Assembly: GCA_943333275.1 (NCBI GenBank)
Contig: CALQSQ010000004.1
Span: forward strand, 4,909-68,908
Length of the DNA stretch: 64,000 bases
Source: Akkermansia muciniphila
GTDB lineage: Bacteria > Verrucomicrobiota > Verrucomicrobiia > Verrucomicrobiales > V1-33
Direction of reading: 5' to 3'
Under the pieces are notes generated by a model. That model made no database searches. It worked only from the letters and a program-made list of their open reading frames with translations, and was not told where the DNA came from. A program made the position numbers and the translations under genes. This document shows, in pieces, positions 6,727 to 23,335 of this stretch (positions are counted from its first letter, which is position 1; each line of letters begins with the position of its first letter).

Positions 6727-8529
6727 TCATTCCGTCGTCTGATAGGTGAGCCACTCTCGCCAACTTCCATAACTCGTGATTTCCCTGGCTGTCTCGCTGA
6801 TCAGGCCTTCACAAACGAAACCACACACGTGCGATCCATCCGCGAGCTGCACACGGCCCAGGACCAGCGGCGCGGCGATGCCTTCGAGGAAGGATCCCAT
6901 GGTGGATTTGGGGATTTCCCAGACTTCGAGTTCGATGGCGGCTCCGCCTTCTCTGACGCGGACCATGCCAGGCCGGTCAGGAATGCGTCCGTTTGCGGGT
7001 AGCAGGTAGAGTCGATAGCAAGGCGCACTCTGGATTCGTTGCACAAAGCGGGCCTTGCGGTCGCTCAACTGCCAGTGCAACGCGAGTCCCTCCATGTGAG
7101 CCCCGCAGACGGCAATCTTCATCATGGGGACTGTGGATGGTGGCGATTCAGGCAGTGGCACGTCACTGCTCATTGCGGAGGATTTTCCAAGCGGAAGATT
7201 GGCCTCAGCGTGAAAGCGGGCCGCGCAATCGAGCACAAGTGCATCGCCATGAGGGGGCGCATAGAAAGTCACGCCCCAGGGCAGGCCATTGCACTGAAAT
7301 CCGGCGGGAACGGCACAGCCGCAGAGATCAAGCAGGTTCATGAAATTCGTATAACGACCAAGGTTGCTGTTGAGTTTGATCGGTTCGGCCTCCACTTCTG
7401 CCCTGGTATAAATAGTCCCGGCGGTTGGCATCAGCAGAGAATTGATGTTTTGCCACGTGGCTTCACTGGCGCGCCTGAGTTCCGCGAGTCGATATTGCGC
7501 CCGGAAAGCATCCACCGCCGTCCCCTTGAGACCGCCTTCAATGATTGTGCGAGTCACTGGCAAAAGGGCTTCTGGCTGTTCTGCGAGAAGTTTACTGACA
7601 ACTGCGGTGCGTTCCGCCACCCACGGCCCTTCGTAGAGCAAACGCGCTGCATCAAGAAAGGCGCTGATGTCCACTTCGATGATTTCCCAACCCATTCCGG
7701 CGATGGTTTGTCTGGCATGATCAAACAATCGTTTGGCATCATCGTTGCCAAAGAAATCCAGTTGATCGGACCTCGGAACACCAATCTTAGGCGGCCAGGA
7801 AAACTCCGCACTCAATCCTGCACTGCGTGCATAGGCATCCGCTTCATCAAACGCAGCCGCCACTTTCAAAACACTCGACGCATCCGCCGCCGTCAGCGCA
7901 AAAATGGAGACGCAATCGAGCGTCCGGCACGCAGGCACAACCCCGGTGCAACTCAACAAACCTCGCGTCGCCTTAAGCCCGATGAGATTGTTAAACGAAG
8001 CGGGAACGCGCCCCGATCCAGCAGTGTCCGTTCCTAATGAAAAACTGCACAGGCCTTTCGCCACCGCCACCGCTGATCCCGCGCTGCTGCCACCAGGAAT
8101 GTAATCTGGATTGAAAGCGTTTCCTGGCACCCCATACGGCGAACGCACGCCGACAAGTCCTGTGGCGAACTGATCAAGGTTGGTCTTGCCCATGGGAATG
8201 GCTCCGGCATCAATCAGCAGTTTAACCACGAAAGCATGCTGGGCTGGCTCATAACTCCATGCCGGGCAGGCGGCCGTGGTGGGAAATCCAGCGCAATCAA
8301 TGTTGTCCTTGATGGCAAAAGGAATGCCGTAGAGCGGCTTGGAATCAGGCGATTCTCCTTCGAGTGCTCGAAGCGATTCTCTCAACTGCTCTTCCGTGGG
8401 CCGACTGATCCAGATCGCCGGATCATCCGACGCGGCGCGCCTCCATGCATCGAGAACAATTTCCCTGGGGCTGCAGGATCCCTCCCGATAGGCCTTGAGC
8501 AGCGCGGAAATGGAAAGATCTGGAATCAT
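6727..8529 (-). CDS. Allophanate hydrolase (amidase-signature domain plus C-terminal allophanate hydrolase domain)
   Basis: 600 aa. The amidase signature [12 protein letters not shown] with the upstream KDNID motif is present. The start overlaps the carboxylase stop by 4 nt. Confidence 0.85.
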
Positions 8530-11500
8530 AGTTGCACGGAGATGAGAGTTTGGCCCGGAGTCACTGCCTGACCTTCCTTCACATGCAGCGCCGCCACGGT
8601 GCCCGAGGTCGTGCTCGGAACGTGGATCTCCATCTTCATGGCCTCAACGATGAGCAGCGTTTGTCCTTCCTCCACACGATCACCGACGGCGACCTGCAGT
8701 TTCCAAAGACTTCCAGTCACCGGACTGACAACCGCTTCATGGCCGTCCGGCAGCGTGATCTCTGTATCCGCCGTCATCGCACTGGAAGTCGATTCCGTGA
8801 CGTCCAGCCCCGCGATCCTCCACCGTTCACGCTCAGCCGCGAAGGCATCGCGCTGAAAGGAACGAAACGCAGCGATGCTTGGTGATTCGCTTTCAAGAAA
8901 TTCGAGATAGTCACTGAGTCTGAAACTGCTCTGTTCGATGCGCGGCGTGAAACGTCCCGCAGGGAAATCGCGCCTCAGCTCCATCAACTCGTCCGCACTG
9001 ACAAGATAGAACCGCACTTGATCAAAGAACCTCAGCAGCCACGGCTTGCCATCTTCGAAGACATCCGTGACCCGATCACGATTCCACATTTGAATGGTGC
9101 GTCCCACAAATTGGTAACCGCCCGGTCCCTCCATACCATAGATGCACATGTAGGCACCTCCGATGCCCACGGCATTCTCCGGCGTCCAGGTGCGGGCGGG
9201 ATTGTATTTGGTCGTGACCAGGCGATGCCGTGGATCAAGCGGTGTCGCGACCGGCGCGCCAAGGTAAACATCACCCAACCCAAGCACCAGATAGCTCGCA
9301 TCGAAAACAATGCGCTGCACATCGGCGATACTCTCCAGCCCATTGATGCGACGGATGAACTCAATATTGCTGGGGCACCAAGGAGCATCGGGCCGAACCG
9401 ATTGCATGTATTTGTCTATGGCCAGTTGCGTCTGAGGATCGTCCCATGAGAGCGGAAGATGCAAGATGCGGGATGGCACTTTCAAATGCTCCACATCATC
9501 CAGCGAGGAGATTAACTCTTCCACCAAACGTTCAACCTGCTCTAGTCGCAGCTGCTCGCCATCGATATGAATCTGCAACGAACGAATCCCCGGCGTGAGA
9601 TCCACGATGCCGGGATGATTCATCGACTGAAGTTTTAAATAGACGGCATGCACCCAGAAGCGCAGGGCGATATCGAGCACCAGAGGCCCAAACTCCACTA
9701 GCAGGTTGCGATCCCCCGCCGGACGATACACAACTTCGGGGCGTGATGCGCAAGCCGCGATGCGATGCCGCACTGCCTGCAAAGCAGCCAGTCCACCCGT
9801 TGTTAATTCCGGAGGTGTTCCACCCGCCATGGAATCTTCTACAAACGCATCGAGCGCCTCTGCTTGCTCCAGCGAAATTGCCACGAACTGGATGCGATCT
9901 CCTGGTTTCAGTTGCCCCACTTTCCACAAGTCAGCATGGACGACAACAGCCGGGCACACAAAGCCGCCCAGGCTCGGGCCATCCGGTCCCAGGATGATTG
10001 GCATGTCGCCGGTGAAATCAATGGAGCCGATCGCATAAGCGTTGTCATGAATGTTCGAGGGATGCAATCCTGCCTCACCACCGTCCGCACGCGCCCAGGT
10101 GGGTTTTGGTCCGATCAAACGCACACCGGTGCGCGCCGAGTTGTAATGAACCTCCCATTCCGTTGCAAAAAACATTTCGATGTCTTCAGGAGTGAAAAAA
10201 TCAGGCGCACCGTGTGGACCGTAGAGGACGCGAATCGTGTCCACTTTGTTTCCGGCAGAGAAGGGATGGAGCTTGGCCAAAGAGAAAGAACCGATGGCCG
10301 CAGTTGCAGGGTTGATGTGAATAACATCGCCGACGCGCAACGCCCGCCCAGCGTGGCCGCCGAAATTCCCCAGCGTAAACGTCGAGCAGCTTCCCAGATA
10401 AAGCGGCACATCCAATCCACCCTGAACTGCCAGATAAGCGCGGCACCCATGTCCGGTGGTGCGCCCAAGCTTAAGCGTCTGTCCGGCAAGCACGGAGATC
10501 GGCTTCCAGAAGGCAACGGAAGCACCATCCAACTCCGCACTCATTTCTGCGCCAGTCAGACAAATGGTAGTGTCCGCATTAAATCGGAGCGTCGGCCCCG
10601 CCAGAGTCATTTCAAGACCTGCGACCCCTTCCTCGTTTCCGATCAGTCGATTTGCGATGCGCAGGGCCAGCGGATCCATCGCCCCAGAGGGAGGCACGCC
10701 GATTTCCCAATAGCCAAGCCGCCCCGGCGTATCCTGCACTGTCGTTTGTACTCCTGGAGCGAGCACATCGATGGTTGAAGGTCGATACTGAAATGAAGTG
10801 GCCAGGGCGCGCGTGGTGATGCGTCCTTCGGTGAAAAGTGGATCGCGAATCACCTGCCGCAGGTAGGCCAGGTTCGTCTCGATGCCACTGACGTTCGAAT
10901 GGTCCAGCGCATGCTGCATCTTGGAAATGGCGTCGGCGCGGTCTGCACCGTGCACTATAATCTTCACCAGCAGCGGATCGTAATACGGCGTGACTTCCGT
11001 TCCTGTGCTGATCCATCCATCACAGCGGGCTTCCCTGCAAAGTTGCACATCCGTGAGGCGCCCGCAGCTCGGTTGGAAGTCCTTGTTAGGATCCTCCGCA
11101 TAAACACGGACTTGGATGGCGCTTCCTTTTGGCGTAAAAGCAAAGCTTTCCAACCCAACATCCTCGCCTGCGGCGGTCCGAACCATCCATTCGACGAGGT
11201 CCAGTCCGGTAACGCATTCCGTGACGGTGTGTTCTACCTGCAGCCGGGTGTTCACCTCCAGGAAATAAAACTCGTTGGTGTCGGCATCATACACAAACTC
11301 CACGGTGCCGGCCGAACGGTAGTTTACGGATTTCCCCAACCGCACGGCGCAATCCCAAAGTGCATAGCGTGTCTCATCGGATAAGTTCGGCGCTGGTGTC
11401 TCCTCGATGATTTTCTGATTGCGACGCTGCGTCGAACAGTCGCGTTCCCCCAGGGAAACGAGCGAGCCTTTTCCATCGCCGAAAATTTGCACCTCAACGT

Positions 11501-12119
11501 GCCGTGCATTGACGACCAGCTTCTCAACAAACACCCCGCCATCCCCGAAACTTGATTTCCCCTGACGCACCACGGATTCAAACGCGGCCCGCAGTGATGC
11601 AACGTCATCACACCGCCGCATTCCGATTCCGCCGCCGCCCGCCGTGCTCTTGAGCATGACGGGAAAACCAATGCGCGACGCCTCACTCACCGCCTCGTCC
11701 GCATCGCGCAGCAGGGCCGAGCCTGGAACCAATGGAACCTTGCAGGCCAGGGCTCGTTCACGCGCGGTGTGCTTCAATCCAAAGGCGCGCATTTGATCAG
11801 GCGTTGGCCCCATGAAAGCCATGCCGGCCTGTTCGCAGGCTTCGGCGAAACCCGCATTTTCACTGAGCAATCCATATCCGGGATGAACCGCCTGCGCACC
11901 GCATTGAGATGCAATTTCCAACAATCGCTTCTGGTTGATGTAGCTCTCGGCCACCGGCGCGGGGCCCAGCAGATAGGACTCATCGGCCATGGAGACATGG
12001 GGCGCGTCGCGATCCGCTTCGGAATATACAGCAACGGAGCCAACGCCCATTTTTTTGAGAGTTCGGATGATGCGGCAGGCGATTTCGCCGCGATTGGCCA
12101 CGAGGACTTTGGTAAACAT
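8526..12119 (-). CDS. Urea carboxylase / guanidine carboxylase (biotin carboxylase + carboxyltransferase AHS1/AHS2-like domains + biotinyl domain)
   Basis: 1197 aa. The N-terminus [20 protein letters not shown] is a biotin carboxylase start, and the C-terminal biotinylation motif EAMKME is present. The length and order are typical of bacterial urea-carboxylase-type enzymes. Confidence 0.9.
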
Positions 12120-12122
12120 AGG

Positions 12123-12755
12123 TCAGTCCCAGATGAGCACGCGCACCGGGGTTGGGTTGTAGGCATTGCAGGGATTGTTTAACTGCGGGCAGTTGGAAAT
12201 GAGGCACATCACATCCATTTCGGCGCGCATTTCGACATACCGTCCCGGGCCGCTGACGCCATCGGCAAAGCTGAGCTGGCCATCCAGTGTCACGGGCACA
12301 TTCATGAAAAAATTGATATTGCAGGTGATGTCGCGCTTGCCCATGCCGTGGCTCCAGCATTGCACGCCGCGGATAAAACTGTCGCGGCAGGCATGCATCG
12401 GCTCTTTTTCGACTGCGTAACGCATAACGTTGCTTTCGCGTGAGCAAGCGCCGCCAAGCGTGTCGTGCCGGCCGCAGGTGTCGGCCACGATAGTGAGCAG
12501 CGGATTACCCCGTGTGGACATGAGCTTCGTTCCCGTCGTCAAATAAAGCGCAGCCTGATGACGGATGGTATCGCTCGCGCTGTAGCGTTCGAGCGGATCA
12601 TGGGCGTTATAAAACAGAGTGTCGGCGGCCTGGTTTCCCTCCAGATCCTCGATGCGCAGGGTCTGCCCTTTTTTAACAAGATGCAGCCAGTGATCGCCCG
12701 CAGGCACGATCTCGTCGTGAACTGCTTCAGAAGGATTGAGGTGGGATGCGATCAT
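12123..12755 (-). CDS. DUF1989 protein (urea-carboxylase-associated protein 2 / carboxyguanidine deiminase subunit-like)
   Basis: It is a paralogue of the upstream gene and sits immediately 5' of the carboxylase (3-nt gap). I moved the start to the internal Met (MIASHLNP), which gives an ATGA overlap with the upstream stop. Confidence 0.75.
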
Positions 12756-13468
12756 CGGGCGAGGAGGTAAAATTCTTCGGTGCTGCAATGCGCCCTGGCG
12801 TTCTCGGGCCGCACGATGAAGCTTGGGTCATCGACAGCGGGAGGATCACTCCTGAGGACCTCGAGCCGCACCCGACGCGGGTGATACTGTGGATCGGGAT
12901 CCAGCGGATGCTGGCAGGTGTTCAGCACCACAAGCGTGTCCATTTCGAATCGCAGATCGACTGAGTCCCCCGGCTTTGAGTTTCCACTGACAAAATCCAG
13001 CCGCCCTTCCTCGTCCGCCACAATCTTGCTGAACCAATTAAGGTTCGGAACCAGATCACGCTCGCCCAGTCCCCATTTCGAAAGCTCGATGAGGAAGCAG
13101 TCCCGGGCATTGCGATGAAAATCATTGCGGGCGGTTTGAAAATTTTTCTCCCCATATTTTTTAAGGACCAGGGAGGCATCGCTAGCCCCACACACGGAGT
13201 CGTGCCAGCCAACGTCATCCCGGGTGATCGAGGCGAACAATCTCCCCATGTCCGAATGAAGGCAATAGGGGGCGCGCAGGTAGAAAATGTGCTGGCCCTT
13301 GAGCGTATCGGGCATGTTGTAGCGTTCATGACGCTCGGTGGCGTTATAGAGCAGCATGCCGACATTGGCGCCGCCCTCGAGATCGGTAAGTCGCAGGGTC
13401 TTATGCCTGCCAATGACGCGCGACCACATGCCTGCGCCGCTGAGTTCGATGTTATAAAAGGGAGTCAT
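12752..13468 (-). CDS. DUF1989 protein (urea-carboxylase-associated protein 1 / carboxyguanidine deiminase subunit-like)
   Basis: 238 aa. Its pattern is related to the downstream paralogue ([20 protein letters not shown] versus [20 protein letters not shown]). It overlaps the regulator stop by 4 nt. Confidence 0.75.
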
Positions 13469-13929
13469 GGTTCATCCGCCTGGGTTTGAATGGGTGGCAT
13501 GAGGGTGCGCGTCAGGTTAAGCCGTCCAGCGAGCACCCCCTTGCAGGTGAGGAGTTTGTTGGCAATTTGGCGCAACCGCTTTGCCGGACCCTGAACAAGA
13601 ATCACTTCCATGGTGTTACTGTTTTCCAGCAGGACATGCAGGGAACTGATCACCTCCCGAATGCTCTCATGCTGGATGTCGGCAATTTCCTGCTTCAACC
13701 CGGGCCGCTTGTGATCGTAGAAAAGCGTGATTGTGCCGGCCATCATGCGGTTGCCTCGAAGGCTGTAATAGTCGGCAATGTGCTGGGTGAGGACTTCCGC
13801 CACCGCCTGCGATCGATTGTGGAATCCTCGCTCGATCATCAACTCCTGAAACTGACGAAACACGCCCTCGGGCAACGAGAGCGTAACCCGGTGGGCAGTG
13901 GTGGAGTCAGCGGAAGGAAGGTCGGCCAT
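13465..13929 (-). CDS. NikR-like ribbon-helix-helix (CopG family) transcriptional regulator with a C-terminal ACT-like domain
   Basis: It aligns by eye along the whole of E. coli NikR ([10 protein letters not shown].., [14 protein letters not shown] versus RGYNNRSEAIRDIL; [30 protein letters not shown] versus [30 protein letters not shown]). The ATG at 13929 is preferred over the GTG at 13953. Confidence 0.7.
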
Positions 13930-13967
13930 TTTGTGATAAGGAATCTTGAGCACGATTCAGACCATTC

Positions 13968-13996
13968 GTATGAAGAAAAATCAAATTGGTATGAAG
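13968..13996. promoter_or_regulatory. Direct repeat GTATGAAG-N13-GTATGAAG (21-bp period) in the AT-rich gap upstream of the RHH regulator; candidate operator
   Basis: Exact 8-mers lie at 13968-13975 and 13989-13996. GTATGA is the half-site of the E. coli NikR operator (GTATGA-N16-TCATAC). This is the only sizeable intergenic gap inside the 15-gene cluster. Confidence 0.35.
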
Positions 13997-14006
13997 TATT
14001 TAGGGT

Positions 14007-14822
14007 TTAAATCACATTCTGCAATCGTCCCATCATCCAACGGTTCACCTCGCGAAGGTCAGCCACCCGCTTCCGTGTAAATAGCTCCTCCTGCAGGTAT
14101 CCATCCGGGCCGAACTCCGGGGTGAACGTGGGCAGAGGATTCCCATGCAAAACTTGTCTTTCCGCAATTCGCCGCCACCAGCGTTCATGGGCTACGAGGG
14201 CGGCGGCATATTCCGGCACACGGGGATCGGGAACCTGCGGTCCCTGCTCGTAGCCCACGCGTGCATGCACATGAAGGGCACGATTCGCGATTAAATCCAA
14301 CAATTCCCCCTCCTCATCCATCACCAGCCTTTCGGTCACCGCGCACCAGTGGCTGAAATCACAGGTTAATCTCAGCTCAGGAATTCCCTTCAACAAATCG
14401 CGCGTCACCCAGGGATGGAACGTAGGCCGGCTCCGGTGCGTCTCGAACGCAATCGGGATGCCAAATTCCCTCTCGAGTGCGAGCGCTTGCGCATAAAAAC
14501 TAAGGGCTTCGGCCATCGGCCAGGCGTCGCTCCCGGCAAGGGCATTGATCAAAATCGGTTTGAACGGAAGGGACTTTTCAATTTGATCACGCAAATCCTC
14601 AAAATGAACCTTAGTGGAGAGGTGCGCGCGGGGCACGTATCCGCCCCCGGTCGCGATTTCTGCAATCCATGGCACGGATCGCTGACGCAAACTTTCCACG
14701 TTGGCATCATCCACCGGCACCGGTCCCTCGATTCCACAGGCCTCCCATTCGGCAGCAAGCGCCAATGCGCCGGTGATATTCACCTCGTTTCCCCAGCAGG
14801 ACACAAAACATCGCGGTTTCAT
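14007..14822 (-). CDS. Xylose-isomerase-like TIM-barrel protein (sugar phosphate isomerase/epimerase family)
   Basis: 271 aa with family-typical strand ends (AFETH, HVHARVG, CDFSHW). It overlaps the upstream gene by 4 nt. Confidence 0.6.
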   Translation of the reverse strand: MKPRCFVSCWGNEVNITGALALAAEWEACGIEGPVPVDDANVESLRQRSVPWIAEIATGGGYVPRAHLSTKVHFEDLRDQIEKSLPFKPILINALAGSDAWPMAEALSFYAQALALEREFGIPIAFETHRSRPTFHPWVTRDLLKGIPELRLTCDFSHWCAVTERLVMDEEGELLDLIANRALHVHARVGYEQGPQVPDPRVPEYAAALVAHERWWRRIAERQVLHGNPLPTFTPEFGPDGYLQEELFTRKRVADLREVNRWMMGRLQNVI

Positions 14823-15679
14823 GGCAAATCGAAGTTCACCTCCCTTCTGGCCTCCGGATGGCCCCTAACGTATTCGGCAATCTCCTGCCCACGTGCGAAC
14901 CAAACGTAACCTCGTTCCCTCGCCTTTGTCAGCAACTCCTCCAGCAACCGCACCCGTGAGGGGCGCCCGCTCAGCCAGGGATGCAGCGTAAGCACGAAAC
15001 AGCAGCCAAAATCACGCATGGCCTCGAATTCGCGCCACCAGAGATCGAACACGTTGCTGCAATTCTGCGGAATGGAACCCCAGGCTGGCTCGGCATTGAA
15101 GGCGAACTGCTCCCAGTCCTCCAGCATCCATTGGCCGGGAATTTCGATGAGACCATTTGAGTGCGTGTAGGGCACGTCATCGCCCATCATGCTGGCATTA
15201 TAAAGATAGCTGAACTCCTTCAACAATCCGGGTGTTCCAGGATTGATCTCAAACCATGGAGCGCGAAACCCAACGGGGCGCCTGCCCGTGATACGCTCAA
15301 GGATGCCGGTACTTTTTTCCAAAACCGCGCGTTCCTCCTGTGGAGATAAATGGGCCAGCTTTTCGTGCATGTGCCCATGTGCGCCGACCTCATGCCCGCG
15401 GGTGACGATGGCTTCCATCATCCGTGGATGACGTTCGGCGATGTAACTCGGCACGAAAAACGTGGCCGGGAGTTGCAAATGATCGAGCAAGCCCAGTAAT
15501 CGCGGCACGCCAACGTTTGGTCCATATTCGCACTGCGACATCGTGGTGAGGCGGGAAGCGAGCGTTGGGTCCTCGGAGAGCGCGGTGGTTTCGCCATCGA
15601 CATCAAAGCACAGCATGAAGGCACACTTGGCACCGTCGGGCCAGATAAAGCGTGGAGGAGGGGAGTAGAGTTCAGTCAT
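14819..15679 (-). CDS. Polysaccharide deacetylase (CE4/NodB) family hydrolase, PuuE-allantoinase-like size
   Basis: NodB-type motifs are present: FDVDGET, PATFFVPSYIAERHP, GHEVGAHGHMHE. I moved the start to the internal Met (MTELYSPPP), which gives an 8-nt overlap with the SDR stop. The longer ORF (to 15820) would overlap the SDR by about 150 nt. Confidence 0.7.
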   Translation of the reverse strand: MTELYSPPPRFIWPDGAKCAFMLCFDVDGETTALSEDPTLASRLTTMSQCEYGPNVGVPRLLGLLDHLQLPATFFVPSYIAERHPRMMEAIVTRGHEVGAHGHMHEKLAHLSPQEERAVLEKSTGILERITGRRPVGFRAPWFEINPGTPGLLKEFSYLYNASMMGDDVPYTHSNGLIEIPGQWMLEDWEQFAFNAEPAWGSIPQNCSNVFDLWWREFEAMRDFGCCFVLTLHPWLSGRPSRVRLLEELLTKARERGYVWFARGQEIAEYVRGHPEARREVNFDLP

Positions 15680-16442
15680 GCCAGTGCCCTCCGACAATGT
15701 TGTTCGGTGAAGTGAGCGGATACTCGTTCCAGCCGGCGGTGATTCCTCCGTCCACTGGGATGTTGGCTCCGGTGATGTAGCTCGCGTCATCGCTGGCAAG
15801 GAAGTGAAACGCCGCAGCAATCTCGTCGGGCCACGCGAGGCGGCCCAACGGTGTCGCCTTGCTCACGAATGAAATCTCTGGGTTGTTGGGAATATCGGTG
15901 ACAGCAGGCGTGAGCACGGTGCCGGGGCAGACGCAATTCACGGTGATGCCTTTCGCGGCCAGTTCGATGGCACCGAGTTTGGTGAGGTGAATGACGGCCG
16001 CTTTGGAAGTGGAGTAAGCGGTGCCACTGGGCGAGCCGATCATGCCTACAAAGGAGCCCGTGTTGATGATGCGACCGCCGCTTTCGAGCAGTTGCCCGCC
16101 GTGCTTGATACCGAAGGCGACGCTGTGAACATTCACTTCAAAGGTGCGCTGCAGAAGCTGCGGTGTGAGTTCATTGAAGCTGACACCGAGCGGTTGGATG
16201 CCCGCGTTGTTGATGAGGATGTCCACGCGACCAAACTCTGACTTCGCTTGCTCCAACATGCCGCGCACTTCGTCCTCGGCGGAAACATCGGCTTGATGGA
16301 ACACAGCGCCTTCGATCTTGGCAATGTTGCGATCCACCAGCAACACGCACGCTCCAGCCTTGACGAAGCGCTCGACAACGGCGAGGCCGATGCCAGAGGC
16401 TCCTCCAGTTACGACGGCGACTTTGTTGGTCAGGTCAAACAT
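15672..16442 (-). CDS. Short-chain dehydrogenase/reductase (SDR) family oxidoreductase
   Basis: Cofactor motif TGGASGIGLA, NNAG, and catalytic YSTSK (YxxxK). Confidence 0.85.
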   Translation of the reverse strand: MFDLTNKVAVVTGGASGIGLAVVERFVKAGACVLLVDRNIAKIEGAVFHQADVSAEDEVRGMLEQAKSEFGRVDILINNAGIQPLGVSFNELTPQLLQRTFEVNVHSVAFGIKHGGQLLESGGRIINTGSFVGMIGSPSGTAYSTSKAAVIHLTKLGAIELAAKGITVNCVCPGTVLTPAVTDIPNNPEISFVSKATPLGRLAWPDEIAAAFHFLASDDASYITGANIPVDGGITAGWNEYPLTSPNNIVGGHWHD

Positions 16443-16837
16443 GGTGGTGGTCCGTTGTGCGTGAATTTTGGAAGCTCCGGATCAAGCACGAGCCAGGGAA
16501 GATGATCGGCCATCCAGTTGTAGTCGTCAGGCTGCAGTGATGCCGCGTCATCCATGGTGCCTAGAGTCAGCTCCAAGAGATCAGGATAGGCGCTGTCGTA
16601 GAAGCTAATGGGTGAGCCGCAGGCAGCACAAAACGCGCGTTCGCGCCCTTCGTAGTGATGCACGCGCAGTTCGCCGGTGATGATGCGGATGTCCTCTTTG
16701 GCAAAGAAGACCCAGCCCTGGAACGGCGCGCCACTGGCACGGCGACAGTCTTCGCAGTGGCAGAGGGACGTGTTTAGTGGTGCGCCGTGCGCTTCGTAGC
16801 GCACAGCTCCACAGAGGCAGTGGCCAGTCCACATCAT
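16430..16837 (-). CDS. GFA / CENP-V family zinc protein (glutathione-dependent formaldehyde-activating enzyme family)
   Basis: MMWTGHCLCGAVRYEA...CHCEDCRRASGAPF...FCAACGSPI shows the GFA cysteine pattern. The start at the internal ATG forms an ATGA overlap with the Rieske gene stop. Confidence 0.7.
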   Translation of the reverse strand: MMWTGHCLCGAVRYEAHGAPLNTSLCHCEDCRRASGAPFQGWVFFAKEDIRIITGELRVHHYEGRERAFCAACGSPISFYDSAYPDLLELTLGTMDDAASLQPDDYNWMADHLPWLVLDPELPKFTHNGPPPCLT

Positions 16838-18096
16838 GGCCTTTGAGAGGGCGCGGGTGGAATGTCGGTCGCGGGCATAACGCCGCGGATCCGGGCCGCA
16901 AGGTATCGTTGGATCAGCCAAACGGACATCTCCAAGTAACTCAAGCGGCCACGCTGATAACCGCTGGCATAGAACCCGCGCTGCACGGCGGTGCACATTT
17001 CCATGTCTTCCATGTGAAACTTGCGCAGAATCTCAATCTGCTCGGCACACATCGCTGGCCAGTTCAGGTGCTCGGTGGTGGATGCAGGCACGAGCGTGGT
17101 GGTCAGAAGCTTCACGCGATCCGCAGCGGCGGGGATCATGCGGTAGAAGATGAGGCGATCCGGGTTCGCCGAGATCAGCATGAGCGGATGCACGAGGAAG
17201 ATGTGCCACTCGTTTCTCAACTCCGCTGGCAGATCAATGGGCGGCATCCCATGCACGGACTCACCGCGGGCTTCCGCAGCCAGCATGTCATCGAGCATCG
17301 CGGGCTTCACGGGCAGATGCGCTCGGATGTAGGCGGGGCGTTCTTGTTCGTTCCAAGTGAGCTTGGCTGGCATCATCGGCTGCAGCGTCGTCGAGTGCGC
17401 GCCGATGTGGTGATACGACTCCATGAAGTTCTCCGCGAGCACCTTCCAGTTGAAAGGACAGTCCCACTCCATTTGGATGACCATCTTCATCTCACTGATG
17501 TTCCAGGGCGCGAGTGCCTCGGCCAAACCACTGAGTCGCTCATGCAGCGGCGGTGCGGCACCATCGAGATTGACGAAGACAAAGCCATTCCACACCTCGC
17601 AAGCGAAGGACGTCAGGCCCCACTCCGCACGATCAAAGCATTCCGTCTTCTCCATCTCCGGCGCCCCTTTGAGCCGACCGTCCAAATCAAACGTCCACGC
17701 GTGATACGGGCACATGAAAACGCGCGAATGGCCACAGTCCGGCGGCCCGTGGCCGGCATAGCCAAAACCCTCGGGCATGATGTCCATCGCCCGATGCGGA
17801 CACACTCGCGAGAGCACGCGGATGTTCTCTTTGCCTCGCACCACGATGAGCGGATCGCCGAAGACGTCGATGTTCAAGTAGTCGCCGACGTTCGGGATCT
17901 GCGACACATGCGCGAGGGGCAGCCAGTCGTTGCGGAAAACGTGATCGACTTCCCAATCAAAGAACGCCTCGCTCGTGTAGGCTTGTGCTGGCAAGGTCGT
18001 GGCCTGCGCGAGCGGGAGTTGCGCGATGCGTTGGATCTCGGCTTGGATCTGTTCGACGCTCCACTGCGGAAGCGCGTTTCTGGATGACGTGCTCAT
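16834..18096 (-). CDS. Rieske [2Fe-2S] non-haem-iron oxygenase, alpha subunit only (GbcA/Stc2/NdmA-like monooxygenase class)
   Basis: Rieske motif CPHRAMD...CPYHAWTF. Mononuclear-iron motif NFMESYHHIGAHS. There is no beta subunit or reductase gene nearby. Confidence 0.85.
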   Translation of the reverse strand: MSTSSRNALPQWSVEQIQAEIQRIAQLPLAQATTLPAQAYTSEAFFDWEVDHVFRNDWLPLAHVSQIPNVGDYLNIDVFGDPLIVVRGKENIRVLSRVCPHRAMDIMPEGFGYAGHGPPDCGHSRVFMCPYHAWTFDLDGRLKGAPEMEKTECFDRAEWGLTSFACEVWNGFVFVNLDGAAPPLHERLSGLAEALAPWNISEMKMVIQMEWDCPFNWKVLAENFMESYHHIGAHSTTLQPMMPAKLTWNEQERPAYIRAHLPVKPAMLDDMLAAEARGESVHGMPPIDLPAELRNEWHIFLVHPLMLISANPDRLIFYRMIPAAADRVKLLTTTLVPASTTEHLNWPAMCAEQIEILRKFHMEDMEMCTAVQRGFYASGYQRGRLSYLEMSVWLIQRYLAARIRGVMPATDIPPAPSQRP

Positions 18097-18099
18097 GGT

Positions 18100-19461
18100 T
18101 CAAAACAACCGTGCATACTGATCGATCTCCCACTGGCTGACGCGCTGGTGGTATTGGAGCCACTCCTCGCTCTTGTAGGCAACGAACTCGTTGCGGAGTT
18201 CGGTGCCGAGCGTGGCCTCCACAAATGGATCCTCAGCAAATGCGCGGACGGCTTCGTCCAGGGTGCGGGGGAGTTCGCTGATGCCGCGCGCCTTGAATTC
18301 CTCCGCGCTGAGGGCGTAAAGATTATCCTCGTTGGAATTCCCGGGATCCAATTTTTCACGGATGCCCTCAAGCCCCGCGGCCAGCACCAGGGTAGCGGCG
18401 AGGTAGGGATTGCAGGCGGCATCGGCATTGCGGGACTCCATGCGTCCACCCGCCATCGGCACGCGCACGGAGTTTGTGCGGTTGTTGCGTCCGTAACTGT
18501 TGAACACCGGCGCCCACGTATAGTTTGCCATGAGTCCCCGGCGCACCAGCCGCTTGTAACTGTTCACCGTGGGAGCGAAGGCAGCGCACAAGGCGCGGCC
18601 GTGTTTCAGGACTCCTCCCATGAAATGATAGGCCATCTCACTGATACCCAATCCGCGCGGATCGTCTGCATGCGCACGGGCAAACCTGTTTTTCCCCGTC
18701 TCCAGATCATACAGCGACATGTTGAAATGCGCGCCACTGCCAGTCTTGTCGGCGAAGGGCTTGGGCATAAACGTCGCCAGCAATCCCTCCTCTGCGGCGT
18801 AGTGCTTGGCCATGTAGCGGAAGAAAATGTAGCGGTCGCACATGGTGAGGGCGTCGGCGTATTTGAAATCGAACTCGAACTGGGATGATGCGTCCTCATG
18901 GTCGAAGGAATACAGATCCCATCCAAGGTCATTGATGCAGCTGGCGACCTTGTCGACCCATGTGAACCGATCCAGGAAGCGCTTTACGTCATAGCATGAC
19001 TTCACAAGCGTCTCATCGGGATTGGGGAACTCAAGCTTCCCGTCGGTGGTCAGTTTCAGGACAAACAGCTCGCATTCGATTCCAAGGTTCATGCCGAGGC
19101 CCATGTCGGCAGCCTGCTTCAATACCTTTTTCAGGGCGCAGCGGGTGTTCACTTCGTAGGGCTCACCCTTGAATGTATTGTCTGCCGGCATCCAGGCGAT
19201 TTCCTTTTGCCAGGGAAGTTGGATGATGTTGTCAACGTCAGGAAGCGAGGCGATCTCATCATCGTTGGGACTCTGGCCCAGGCCGTCCAGCGCATATCCG
19301 GTGTAAAGTTCGGAGCCTCTGGCGAAATCCAGGAAATGATCAATCGGCACAAATTTACCCTTTGGCACACCATGGATGTCAACATAGGCGCCAATGCAAT
19401 ATTTCACGCCCTTGGCCTTGAGGGAGTCGCGGATGGAGGTCAGTTCGGAATCGGTCTTCAT
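18100..19461 (-). CDS. Glutamine synthetase family protein (GlnT / gamma-glutamyl-amine ligase-like)
   Basis: 453 aa. The GS catalytic-domain pattern is present ([19 protein letters not shown]...R.E.R). Confidence 0.8.
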
Positions 19462-19484
19462 TGATTATCTGTGGGGATGGTGGT

Positions 19485-20273
19485 TTAATACAAGACGTTG
19501 GAGTCGGACCAGTGATGCGGATCGAGGGGCGGGATTTCGCAACGGGCGCGGTTGATGATCTCGGCCAGCGCCTCGCCCATTTTGACAAACATTTTCGCGC
19601 CGCGATCAGCCGAGCCCAGCGATGGCTTGCCGGTGATTCCGTTCAGGCTTGTTTGGGAGACGGGGTAACTGAATACGAGACCTTCCGTCCGGTCGGGATC
19701 ATCCTCCACCCAATCCATGCGCACGGTGTCCGGCGCCAAGTGCAGCATGAGATCAGTCTCCGCACAATTTGCATGCAGGTCTGCGGCGTCATTGATGAAA
19801 TAATTCCAAATCTCAGTAGTGAGCTGGTAGGTGTGTCTGAGGCCGATTTGAATTCCCCCCAGAAATTCCGTCCGAATGCGATCCACTGCCACCCGAAGGG
19901 ATGCGTCGTTTCCGAAATGGGCGTTGACGATGAGCAGTCGCCTCCACCCTGTGCGCATGCTCCACAGGGCGATCTCCCGGATCATGGCGATGAGGGTTTC
20001 GTGATTGATCGAAAATGTCCCCGGCCACTTGGAAGTGTGCCCGACGGAAACCCCGTAGGAAAGTGGGGGCAGCATGGGCACCATGGTTCTCGCGGAGGCG
20101 TAGGAGCAGACAGCGGAGGCGATGGCGGTATCCGTGTTGATTGGTAGGTGGGGGCCGTGCTGCTCGGTCGCACCGATGGGGAGGATCAGCATGTCCTGAC
20201 CTCCAGCCTGGAGTTCCGCGATGGCTCTCCAGGAAAGGTTCTCCAGCAAAACGGGGGATTCATTCGACATCAT
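19485..20273 (-). CDS. Creatininase-family amidohydrolase (creatinine amidohydrolase / formamide hydrolase family)
   Basis: Motif LPIGATEQHGPHLPINTD plus the downstream VNAHFGN. I moved the start to an internal Met (MMSNESP), which overlaps the ATPase stop by 11-14 nt. Confidence 0.75.
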   Translation of the reverse strand: MMSNESPVLLENLSWRAIAELQAGGQDMLILPIGATEQHGPHLPINTDTAIASAVCSYASARTMVPMLPPLSYGVSVGHTSKWPGTFSINHETLIAMIREIALWSMRTGWRRLLIVNAHFGNDASLRVAVDRIRTEFLGGIQIGLRHTYQLTTEIWNYFINDAADLHANCAETDLMLHLAPDTVRMDWVEDDPDRTEGLVFSYPVSQTSLNGITGKPSLGSADRGAKMFVKMGEALAEIINRARCEIPPLDPHHWSDSNVLY

Positions 20274-21150
20274 CGCCTGCCTTGGTGAGTTTGACGACGG
20301 GCAACTTGTCCTCTTCAACATCGATGGGTGGATGGATGAGTTCCTCAAGGCGGAGCTTGAGTGCGAGATATTCAGGAGAAACAAACTGTGCGGTGGAGCG
20401 CGGGCGGGGAATGGGATTCTCAATCACCTCCACGATCCGTCCCGGATTGGTTCCCATAACCATGATGCGATCCGAAAGATACGCGGCCTCCTCAAGGTCA
20501 TGCGTGATGAAGAGAACCGTGATGTCCACTTTCTTCCAAATTTGTAGCAGGTAGCTTTGCATCTGGGCGCGGGTCTGGGCATCGAGTGCGCCAAAGGGTT
20601 CGTCCATGATGAGGATGCGCGGCTCATTGGCGAGAGCCCGCGCAATGGCGACGCGTTGCTTCATTCCGCCCGACAATTCATGGGGATAGGACTCCTCAAA
20701 TTTCGAAAGTCCCACCATGTCGAGCCATTGCCGGGCTTCCGATTCGGCGGTGAATTTGTCCTTGCCGCGCATTTCAATGCCAAACATGACGTTGCGTTTC
20801 ACCGTCAGCCAGGGAAACAGCGTATAGCCCTGGAAGACCATTCCGCGATCCGGGCCGGGTTCACCAATCTCCCTCCCATCAAGCAGCGCCACGCCTCCGC
20901 TGCATTCGTCCAGACCGGCGATGATGCGGATGAAGGTGGATTTACCGCATCCGGAGGGACCGATGACGGTGATGAATTCGCGGCGGCGGATGTCGATCGA
21001 AACGCCGTCGAAAACAGTGCGCGTGCTGCCGTTGACGCCATAGGTCTTCTTCAGGCCGCGCACGCTCAGAATCACGGGACGCTGCCGGATGCGTTCAAAC
21101 CGGGCTGCGACCTCCGGGGAAAGATTGCGATAATCGAGGGCCGCACTCAT
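20260..21150 (-). CDS. ABC transporter ATP-binding protein (NitT/TauT nitrate/sulfonate/bicarbonate family)
   Basis: Walker A GPSGCGKST, signature LSGGMKQR, Walker B ILIMDEPF. Confidence 0.9.
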   Translation of the reverse strand: MSAALDYRNLSPEVAARFERIRQRPVILSVRGLKKTYGVNGSTRTVFDGVSIDIRRREFITVIGPSGCGKSTFIRIIAGLDECSGGVALLDGREIGEPGPDRGMVFQGYTLFPWLTVKRNVMFGIEMRGKDKFTAESEARQWLDMVGLSKFEESYPHELSGGMKQRVAIARALANEPRILIMDEPFGALDAQTRAQMQSYLLQIWKKVDITVLFITHDLEEAAYLSDRIMVMGTNPGRIVEVIENPIPRPRSTAQFVSPEYLALKLRLEELIHPPIDVEEDKLPVVKLTKAGDDVE

Positions 21151-22181
21151 GCTTCGACGGCCTTAGCAGGCTTGGGTCTTGAGTTGAAAATGCGGCCAAG
21201 CAATGACCCCTTACCTGACGCGGCAGCGGAGCGCCGTTTCCACGGGAAGATCACCCTCCCAATCCAAGCCAGCAGCAGGTCTGTGGTGAAACCGATGATG
21301 CCGATCATGAAGATGGCGGCATAGACGTTGTCGAAATTCCGGTAACGCGCCTGCTGATTGATGAAATACGTGATCCCCGACATCGTGCCGACGACTTCGG
21401 CAACGATCAGATAGGTCCACGCCCAACCCAGCAGAATGCGCATGTCGGTATAGATGTCGCTTACCGAAGCCGGGATTACCACACGCCTCAGCAGTTTCCA
21501 CCCCCGTGCCCCCAGGGTCTGGGCAGCCTCAATGAGCCCGGGATCGACCTTGCGCACGGTATTGCTGATGACCAGAACCTGCTGGAAGAAAGTGCCGATG
21601 AAAATGATCGCAATCTTCGGGCCATCATCGATTCCCAAAATGGCCACACACAGGGCTCCGAAGGCCGGGGCGGGCAGGTAGCGGAAAAACTCAATGAATG
21701 GTTCCTGCAGGCGGGAGAAGAAGCGGTAGGTGCCGCAGAGAATGCCCAATGGCACACCGAAAATTGAGGAAATGACAAACCCCCAGAAGATGGTTCGGAG
21801 GCTGTGCGCCAGACTCTCGTGCAGCCACGGCTCATTGGGCAGGCGCGGCTCGGTGGTAAAGGCTGTGTAAAACGCCCGGGCCACCCTGTGTGGCGGTGGA
21901 AGGTAAAGGGGATTGATCCGATATCCTTCCGGCAGCGTGCCGCCCGCTGCCTGCACCTTTTCCAGTTCGGCATCGAAGTCCGCCCGCGGCACATCCATGT
22001 CCTCGACAAAATAGTCCACATCTCCAGGTGCAGTGACATGGACGAGTGGATGCCAGAGCCACGGCACGTAACTGATGGCGCACCAAAGCGCGAGCGGCAG
22101 GAGAAACGAACACAGCGCCAGCACAAATCTTCGCCGTGGGGGCAGGTCGTGCTTCAACCCCAGCCAGTCGCGCTTCGGCAT
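21147..22181 (-). CDS. ABC transporter permease (NitT/TauT family)
   Basis: Polytopic membrane protein carrying the EAA-loop-like IEAAQTLGARGWKLLRRVVIPAS. It overlaps the ATPase gene by 4 nt. Confidence 0.85.
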   Translation of the reverse strand: MPKRDWLGLKHDLPPRRRFVLALCSFLLPLALWCAISYVPWLWHPLVHVTAPGDVDYFVEDMDVPRADFDAELEKVQAAGGTLPEGYRINPLYLPPPHRVARAFYTAFTTEPRLPNEPWLHESLAHSLRTIFWGFVISSIFGVPLGILCGTYRFFSRLQEPFIEFFRYLPAPAFGALCVAILGIDDGPKIAIIFIGTFFQQVLVISNTVRKVDPGLIEAAQTLGARGWKLLRRVVIPASVSDIYTDMRILLGWAWTYLIVAEVVGTMSGITYFINQQARYRNFDNVYAAIFMIGIIGFTTDLLLAWIGRVIFPWKRRSAAASGKGSLLGRIFNSRPKPAKAVEA

Positions 22182-22200
22182 ATGGGTGGTGGGTGAAAAC

Positions 22201-23172
22201 TTATTTCAGGGCCTCAACCACACTTGGGGTCAGGTAACTTTCGGGTTTCTGGGAGTCCTTGTAAACCTTGTTGTCCAGATTGAATTTGTTTCCAACCGCC
22301 ATGGAACCATAAATGGAGTCCAGACCCTCGCCTTTCTTGTAGGCTGCCTTGGCTTCCTTCAGCGTGAGGAAATGAGTTCCGGGGACATTGCTGGCGTAGT
22401 CTGCAACTTCCGCCCCAACCTTGGCCGCCATGATCTTTACCGCGTCGTCCTTGGTTTTTTCATCCAGTAGGTAATCCACACACTTGTAAAAGACAGCTGT
22501 GAACTTGGACCATGACTCCTTGTTTTTGGCATAGCTGGTGGGATTGACCGCCAGCACATCGTAGATCAGGCCCTTGGCCTCCGCGCTGGAGAAAAGTTTT
22601 TTGGAACCGGCAACCTGCTTCAGGGCCTGGCCCGAGGATGGATACCAGGCGCCGATGGCGGCGACTTTTCCAGAAGCGAGCGTCTGGGGGGTTTCGTTCG
22701 TCGGGGTGTTGACGAGTTCGACATCGGATTGCTTCATGCCATTGACCTCCAGGGCCTTGAGCAGCAGCAGGTGTTCCACGAGGGTGAGTTCCAGACCGAC
22801 CTTCTGGCCCTTGAGGTCCTTGATGGACTCGATTCCCGGTTTGCCAACGATCGCGTCACTTCCATCGCTGTAATCCAAAAGGGCGATGATCTTGCTCTTG
22901 GCTCCGTTGGCGCCATTCACCAGCGCATCCGTGGCCACGCAGGTCACCGCATCAATCTTTCCAGCGGAAAATGCATCCAGTGAGGGCAGGTAGTCGAACC
23001 AAACCAGTTCAACTTCGATTCCTGCCTCCTTGAACCATCCTTTCTGCTTCGCCACCTCAAGGACGGTATAGCCAGGCCAGTCTGAATAACCGACTTTCAG
23101 CGGGGCGGCATTAGCATTGAAGAGCAGGCCGGTCAGGAGGAGCACTAGGCAGGGAAGGAGTTTGGCTTTCAT
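22201..23172 (-). CDS. ABC transporter periplasmic substrate-binding protein (NMT1/TauA-like)
   Basis: Signal peptide MKAKLLPCLVLLLTGLLFNANA followed by a type-2 SBP pattern (LKVGYSDWPGY...). It is the first gene of the cluster. Confidence 0.8.
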   Translation of the reverse strand: MKAKLLPCLVLLLTGLLFNANAAPLKVGYSDWPGYTVLEVAKQKGWFKEAGIEVELVWFDYLPSLDAFSAGKIDAVTCVATDALVNGANGAKSKIIALLDYSDGSDAIVGKPGIESIKDLKGQKVGLELTLVEHLLLLKALEVNGMKQSDVELVNTPTNETPQTLASGKVAAIGAWYPSSGQALKQVAGSKKLFSSAEAKGLIYDVLAVNPTSYAKNKESWSKFTAVFYKCVDYLLDEKTKDDAVKIMAAKVGAEVADYASNVPGTHFLTLKEAKAAYKKGEGLDSIYGSMAVGNKFNLDNKVYKDSQKPESYLTPSVVEALK

Positions 23173-23225: not shown

Positions 23226-23241
23226 AGCATCCCTTGTGCCA
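23226..23241 (-). promoter_or_regulatory. Candidate sigma-54 (-24/-12) promoter for the 15-gene cluster
   Basis: The minus strand reads TGGCACAAGGGATGCT against the consensus TGGCAC-N5-TTGCW. GG/GC spacing is correct and there is one mismatch. It lies about 54 nt upstream of the SBP start codon. Confidence 0.4.
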
Positions 23242-23335
23242 AGTGGATGCCGCATTCACCATCATCATAAATAAAGCAGGGCTTCGTCATACCCTTTTCA
23301 GGGCTGTTAACCCGCCACCGCTTGGGCCTCAAAAA

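Follow-up and report, generated by a model that had tools for sequence, protein, structure and literature searches.

The window, meaning the whole 64,000-nt stretch of DNA analyzed here, carries a 15-gene cluster on the minus strand. The upstream part of the cluster (positions 14007 to 23172, minus strand) consists of ten genes that precede a regulator gene, and these encode an SBP, a permease, an ATPase, a creatininase-family protein, a type III GS-like protein, a Rieske oxygenase, a small ORF, an SDR, a CE4 deacetylase-like protein, and an unknown protein of 271 aa. The NikR-like regulator gene itself lies at positions 13465 to 13929 (minus strand), with an ORF translation of 154 aa. It is followed on the same strand by a CgdA-like DUF1989 gene (12752 to 13468), a CgdB-like DUF1989 gene with which the CgdA-like gene is paired (12123 to 12788), a gene for a biotin carboxylase with the guanidine signature (8526 to 12119), and, after the carboxylase, an allophanate hydrolase gene (6727 to 8529). 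In family terms, the genes downstream of the regulator are two DUF1989 genes (UAAP1 and UAAP2), a "urea carboxylase," and an allophanate hydrolase, and the cluster gives matches to TIGR03425 (302.7 bits), TIGR03424 (337.5 bits), and TIGR02713 (750.7 bits). The CgdA-like gene is translationally coupled to the regulator gene: the four bases ATGA at 13465 to 13468 hold both the stop codon TGA of the regulator and the start codon ATG of the 12752 to 13468 gene, as had been observed when this DNA was read from sequence alone. Subsets of the ten upstream genes recur with the regulator in distant loci, and the pair of GS-like and creatininase-family genes is common in the gammaproteobacterial ones.

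Guanidine carboxylases have been defined by Asp residues at positions 1330 and 1584 of the Kluyveromyces lactis enzyme (Palatinszky et al., PMC11410670). With the numbering of the K. lactis urea amidolyase taken from structures 5i8i and 3va7, Asp701 of the carboxylase in the window aligns with Asn1330, and the Asp of its GLGDV motif aligns with Asp1584. The Asp is found in 68 of 68 carboxylases encoded beside relatives of the regulator. CgdA, CgdB, the allophanate hydrolase, and the ABC importer (SBP, permease, and ATPase) are all present. Judged by these residues and genes, the pathway in the window is one that serves guanidine, not urea. Its genome also encodes a true urease, so that a second route for urea is not needed.

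The regulator and its lost nickel site

The regulator belongs to the NikR family by homology, with both domains present and a full-length match to NikR proteins of solved structure. It has an N-terminal ribbon-helix-helix domain and a C-terminal NikR_C (ACT-like) domain, the latter with a Pfam score of 88.7 bits, and it scores 114.5 bits against the NCBIfam equivalog NF003381 "NikR," above the cutoff of 105. In HMMER alignments, residues 13 to 138 match residues 2 to 127 of the Escherichia coli protein (1q5v; E value, 7e-11) and residues 14 to 142 match the Pyrococcus horikoshii protein (2bj1; E value, 1e-27), which bears out the end-to-end alignment proposed in the sequence-only reading. The two-domain architecture is shared over its full length with the canonical NikR proteins of E. 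coli (1q5v and 2hzv), P. horikoshii (2bj1), and Helicobacter pylori (2ca9). The regulator also has in common with E. coli NikR the DNA-reading strand Arg-x-Thr-x-Ser and the half-site GTATGA/TCATAC (PMC7055735).

The similarity ends at the metal site. In E. coli NikR, nickel is bound by His87, His89, and Cys95 together with His76 of the neighboring chain (PMC7055735). The HMMER alignment places His87, His98, Leu100, and Thr106 of the regulator at the positions of E. coli His76, His87, His89, and Cys95, respectively. The square-planar His/His/His/Cys site that characterizes a functional NikR is thus His, His, Leu, and Thr here, and the claim that two nickel ligands are kept while His89 is replaced by Leu and Cys95 by Thr was correct. 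Canonical NikR proteins differ from the regulator further at the K+ site, where the pair Glu30/Asp34 of E. coli corresponds to Gln41/Glu45, and in the C-terminal tail, which in the regulator and its relatives is conserved and includes Pro145-Pro146. The regulator also has a histidine at position 73.

These substitutions are not a peculiarity of one protein. A multiple alignment with NikR orthologs, which had been proposed along with the original observation, confirmed them and showed the Cys to be lost throughout a clade. The Cys is absent from 120 of the 120 nearest representatives of 90% clusters and is replaced by Thr, Ser, Val, or Ile. When 1.84 billion representatives were searched exhaustively with HMMER, 1,122 matched, and the nearest approximately 35 of these all lack the Cys; canonical His-His-His-Cys proteins appear from approximately 38% identity, mixed with more Cys-less ones. 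On trees made with FastTree and IQ-TREE from an alignment that included the ligand columns, Cys-less and canonical proteins are separated by 2 label changes, compared with approximately 25 to 47 when labels were shuffled, and the main split has SH-like support of 87 to 90. In 73 canonical representatives, no variation occurs in the columns of His62, His76, His87, His89, and Cys95 (100% invariance). These five metal-site columns have an entropy of 1.9 to 3.1 bits in 80 Cys-less representatives and are among the most variable of the clade. The residue corresponding to His98 is already Asn, Ser, Gln, or Cys in relatives at 72 to 75% identity, and the deepest Cys-less branches show ligand patterns such as HLHT, HHHY, YNNT, RNLS, and RRLV, among others. 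A gammaproteobacterial subgroup often keeps three His residues and has extra His residues. On these trees and alignments, the regulator is a member of one large clade apart from canonical NikR, and this clade has no conserved metal site. The residues conserved specifically in the clade are Ser16, Leu27, Glu92, Ser96, Gln113, Leu119, Pro145, and Pro146, and they do not appear to form an obvious pocket at the old nickel site.

A model of four copies of the regulator gave an ipSAE of 0.83 versus 0.00 for the best control, although solved NikR tetramers exist and the model may therefore show likeness only. For comparison, 20 of 30 proteins solved as one-chain pairs attain this mark, as does 1 of 23 proteins solved as single chains. 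The model runs agree in at least 84% of contacts, with a partner pLDDT of at least 79. The model retains the geometry of the former nickel site, with residues 83 and 86 of one chain facing residues 98 and 100 of another. A third modeled interface is made up of residues 62, 90 to 92, 94 to 95, 97, 111, 113 to 115, and 143 to 152, and it holds four of the eight clade-specific residues. As a lead from the model, this interface may be a new pocket or clasp.

The equivalog NF003381 accepts this protein without a nickel site, and public records call members of the clade "nickel-responsive transcriptional regulator NikR." This naming is probably a systematic misannotation.

Candidate operators and promoters, and linkage to guanidine clusters

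A candidate operator, TCATAC-N15-TCATAC, is located at positions 13968 to 13994 (minus strand; half-sites 13989 to 13994 and 13968 to 13973), within the 77-nt gap upstream of the regulator gene. It is a direct repeat of 21 bp from start to start. The window contains 1 match to this pattern, versus 0 in 100 shuffled sequences, and the 5.79-Mb genome holds no other exact pair, the expected number being 0.53. The operator ends 3 nt upstream of the -24 element of a sigma-54-type -24/-12 sequence, TGGTCT-N5-GTGCT (13949 to 13964, minus strand). We took as sigma-54 type an element with GG-N10-GC in the context TGGCAC-N5-TTGCW, together with an rpoN gene in the genome, which is present (413 bits). 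The 13949 to 13964 element is a weak match to the consensus (7 of 11 positions) with GG and GC correctly spaced, and relatives match better at the equivalent place. The 77-nt gap contains neither a sigma-70-like site nor a terminator. The element is a probable internal promoter, predicted from its sequence, for the nikR-like gene, cgdA, cgdB, and the carboxylase and allophanate hydrolase genes.

A second candidate operator lies at positions 23265 to 23292 (minus strand), with the half-sites GTATGA (23287 to 23292) and TTATGA (23265 to 23270) 22 bp apart. Relative to the -24 TGG of the promoter that opens the cluster, they are at -51 and -29. That promoter, TGGCAC-N5-ATGCT (23226 to 23241, minus strand; 10 of 11 positions by eye), is a predicted sigma-54-type promoter upstream of the SBP gene, which is the first of the 15 genes. 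GTATGA is likewise found at -52 and -30 in six related loci (L016 to L018 and L021 to L023). Neither the candidate operators nor the sigma-54-type promoters had been recognized in the sequence-only reading, which had also missed the guanidine-specific Asp of the carboxylase while describing the locus itself correctly.

When one mismatch was allowed, four pairs in the genome adjoined a sigma-54-like element, two in the cluster and two inside ORFs, and the two in the cluster are the only intergenic ones. The operator-like matches at C68:17842 and C95:22182 fall within long ORFs and were dismissed as chance occurrences. In a survey of half-sites in 86 loci, the window included, 217 of 222 half-site pairs fell in the 5% of the sequence just upstream of the starts of nikR-like, SBP, or cgdA genes. 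Relatives share the layout seen in the window: measured from the -24 TGG, their half-sites occur at -9/-10 and -30/-31, frequently with another at -52 to -54. An extra GTATGA-22-GTATGA pair in a close relative (L003:2298), in a gap of approximately 870 nt upstream of a creatininase-family gene, suggests a third control point in some clusters.

The half-sites vary together with the regulator. Proteins with Thr16 (Arg-x-Thr) go with TCATAC/GTATGA in 26 loci and proteins with Ser16 (Arg-x-Ser) with TAATAC/TATTAC in 50 loci, against a single discordant locus and a single mixed one; the Thr16 association recurs in an independent metagenomic subclade. As read from the sequence, GTATGA-type half-sites approximately two helical turns apart are present as in canonical NikR recognition. 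The operator of E. coli NikR is the inverted repeat GTATGA-N16-TCATAC (PMC7055735), whereas the half-sites in the window are direct repeats, and no inverted GTATGA-N12-20-TCATAC repeat was found in the window.

At least 591 relatives were obtained in a search of one genome per species, and among the best 80 loci the regulator gene is in a guanidine-carboxylase cluster in all 80 and directly upstream of cgdA or cgdB in 76, although these loci are kin and the counts thus overstate independence. They come from Verrucomicrobiales, Opitutales, Chthoniobacterales, Kiritimatiellia, and several gammaproteobacterial families. The markers found near clade members are genes for the SBP importer, CgdAB, the carboxylase, or the allophanate hydrolase, and in the 80 loci the regulator accompanies the core cgdAB-carboxylase module regardless of which accessory genes occur. 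The linkage of a NikR-type regulator to such a pathway had been called unusual; it is in fact conserved in every locus examined. Among the exceptions to the direct upstream position, the regulator gene is divergent in L042 and convergent with the carboxylase gene in L047, while in L059 and L069 cgdAB are approximately 8 kb away on the other strand and the regulator gene ends an importer-creatininase-GS-like operon. The regulator of L047 (10001 to 15963) is a His-His-His-Met member of the clade, convergent with the carboxylase and allophanate hydrolase genes and with an SRP RNA just upstream; no match to cgdAB was found in this 20-kb locus. In many gammaproteobacterial clusters (L036, L048, L051, L057, L063, L065, L068, L070, and L078), a tRNA gene on the opposite strand lies a few hundred bases to approximately 3 kb upstream of the SBP gene, where it may be an insertion landmark.

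In 151 genomes drawn evenly from the phylum, CgdA was found in 17, and a Cys-less regulator is in the cluster in 13 of these (10 adjacent and 3 divergent at a distance of approximately 6 kb). The 4 CgdA-positive genomes without the regulator belong to one genus (L094 to L097; G002, G010, G013, and G136). Their guanidine clusters contain three consecutive DUF1989 genes, with neither a NikR-like gene nor a riboswitch at the Rfam gathering score. The 14 NikR matches checked in CgdA-less genomes of the phylum are all canonical (HVHxxxxxC). A metagenome scan seeded with the HLHT group returned three loci, all from a separate deep subclade with His-Arg-His-Thr (HRHT). Cluster linkage was seen in two of the three, the third contig being too short. 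The HRHT regulator gene is divergent from the SBP importer genes, and in L104 it is divergent from a full SBP-permease-ATPase-cgdA-cgdB-carboxylase array.

The occurrence of guanidine riboswitches differs between the phylum and Gammaproteobacteria. No Rfam family matched in the window, and guanidine-I was found neither in the genome of the window nor in any of the 151 phylum genomes; likewise, none of 16 verrucomicrobial or kiritimatiellial loci had a guanidine riboswitch. Of the 24 gammaproteobacterial loci, 15 have guanidine-II between cgdB and the carboxylase gene, and two (L059 and L069) have guanidine-I before cgdA as well. The presence of these riboswitches ties the clusters directly to guanidine. 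The notion that the regulator is a simple replacement for a riboswitch was rejected as the whole story, since the two coexist in Gammaproteobacteria.

A candidate regulator of guanidine use

Taken together, our results make it very likely that the regulator is dedicated to this cluster and is not a nickel sensor. The best overall explanation, which we consider reasonably probable, is that of a NikR-family tetramer without a nickel site that regulates the guanidine-carboxylase cluster. A tetrameric ribbon-helix-helix regulator would place two DNA-binding heads on half-sites 21 to 22 bp apart. Its sites would lie directly upstream of two sigma-54-type promoters, that of the importer genes and its own, the latter covering the regulator cotranslated with cgdAB, the carboxylase, and the allophanate hydrolase. 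The regulator would repress by crowding the sigma-54 holoenzyme or by blocking its contact with an activator, and it would be autoregulated. A small molecule specific to the cluster, most likely guanidinium, would alter DNA binding, and nitrogen limitation (via sigma-54) and the presence of the substrate could thereby be combined.

We lean toward a repressor over an activator, because one half-site abuts the -24 element. The H. pylori NikR, which both activates and represses, binds ahead of core promoters, as the candidate operators in the window are placed. It requires nickel and works at promoters of the sigma-80 type, and the promoters in the window are of the sigma-54 type. The operator of the SBP promoter, at roughly -50 to -77, presumably resembles the activating placement of H. 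pylori NikR.

As for the effector, guanidine or a close guanidino compound has, in our estimation, a little under an even chance, and guanidinium is the most economical guess. The proposal in the sequence-only reading that the protein senses a different ligand, such as a pathway metabolite, fits all the findings, with the ligand itself a candidate only. Known guanidine control in Raoultella, Klebsiella, and Pseudomonas syringae by guanidine-I and guanidine-II addresses the same targets as the regulator: one control point is formed by the importer with cgdAB and the second by the carboxylase module (PMC12186494). In contrast to these leader RNAs, the regulator is a protein that would act at promoters, and its ligand is putative. 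By position, it appears to occupy the place of guanidine-I before the importer and cgdAB genes, and it could work beside guanidine-II.

The coexistence with riboswitches raises the possibility that the regulator brings in a second signal rather than guanidine. That signal might be carboxyguanidine, allophanate, urea, a guanidino precursor, or a nitrogen-status metabolite. The C-terminal domain is ACT-like, and this fold often binds small metabolites. Guanidine is already sensed by riboswitches in Gammaproteobacteria, and in L059 and L069 the regulator sits in the importer-creatininase-GS-like operon while cgdAB have their own guanidine-I. However, the link of the gene is with the core cgdAB-carboxylase module and does not depend on the accessory genes, and the sigma-54 promoters already cover nitrogen status. 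Coexistence is also no argument against guanidine, since enterobacterial clusters use two sensors, guanidine-I and guanidine-II, for guanidine itself (PMC12186494). We therefore regard another small molecule as unlikely, if still worth keeping in mind. It is more doubtful again that the regulator has no ligand and is a plain autoregulator or an architectural factor at sigma-54 promoters, with induction only via an enhancer-binding activator. The old site has decayed and no conserved pocket was identified, cotranslation with the enzymes would give simple negative feedback, and the sites lie where bending of the IHF type is usual at sigma-54 promoters. Nevertheless, the whole C-terminal domain and the tail with Pro145-Pro146, which shares one modeled interface with Glu92 and Gln113, are strongly conserved in the clade, and such conservation is hard to explain for a mere tetramerization scaffold. 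The strict linkage to one pathway also suggests substrate-specific control.

The account that we find least probable, and would give only a small chance, is that the protein is still a sensor of nickel or another metal through other ligands. Once there was nickel for urease or guanidinase, it would then shut down the carboxylase route, which needs no nickel but is costly in ATP; this is the nickel-sparing switch considered in the sequence-only reading. The genome does encode the alpha subunit of a true urease (C35:15414 to 17123; 942 bits) and a NicO-family nickel/cobalt transporter (C20:12316 to 13554), and the window gene is its only NikR-family gene, with no canonical NikR beside it, so that context alone would allow a nickel role. 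The regulator has His87, His98, and His73, its relatives in Gammaproteobacteria retain His-His-His along with extra His residues, and the alternative guanidinase is nickel dependent (PMC12186494). Against this, the Cys95 equivalent is missing in every member of the clade, the four ligand columns and that of His62 are among its most variable, and His98 is lost even in close relatives. A genome-wide search for operator pairs found none at the urease or NicO loci, and the canonical HHHC NikRs of the phylum are elsewhere, in CgdA-less genomes. The gene is linked not to nickel uptake or nickel-enzyme genes, as for canonical NikR, but to cgdAB and the carboxylase of guanidine catabolism, with sigma-54-type promoters. 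A remnant of a nickel-sparing switch is hence unsupported by the unconstrained metal columns and by the lack of an operator at urease and NicO, and such a switch is possible only as the evolutionary origin of the regulator.

To return to the putative guanidine-responsive regulator, a 2025 review names riboswitches as the only guanidine receptors known so far and notes that transcription factors binding guanidine are still to be found (PMC12186494), and our literature search found no description of a NikR-like regulator of guanidine clusters without a nickel site. Our boldest reading, which we put forward tentatively, is that the clade is the first family of guanidine-sensing transcription factors, in which the Ni2+ site was exchanged for a guanidinium-responsive switch. 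As parts of the same tentative reading, the switch may sit in the interface of Glu92, Gln113-Gly-Pro, and Pro145-Pro146, and in Verrucomicrobiota the regulator would do the job of the guanidine-I riboswitch. The clade represents a case of a metal sensor put to new use once its metal site had decayed completely. It has a defined operator and culturable hosts, among them Prosthecobacter fusiformis, Haloferula sp. BvORR071, Verrucomicrobiae bacterium DG1235, and Sinimarinibacterium sp. CAU 1509, and is a concrete candidate for the first protein switch for guanidine use. For the genomics of the nitrogen cycle, the regulator gene marks guanidine-use clusters in phyla in which no guanidine riboswitch has been found.
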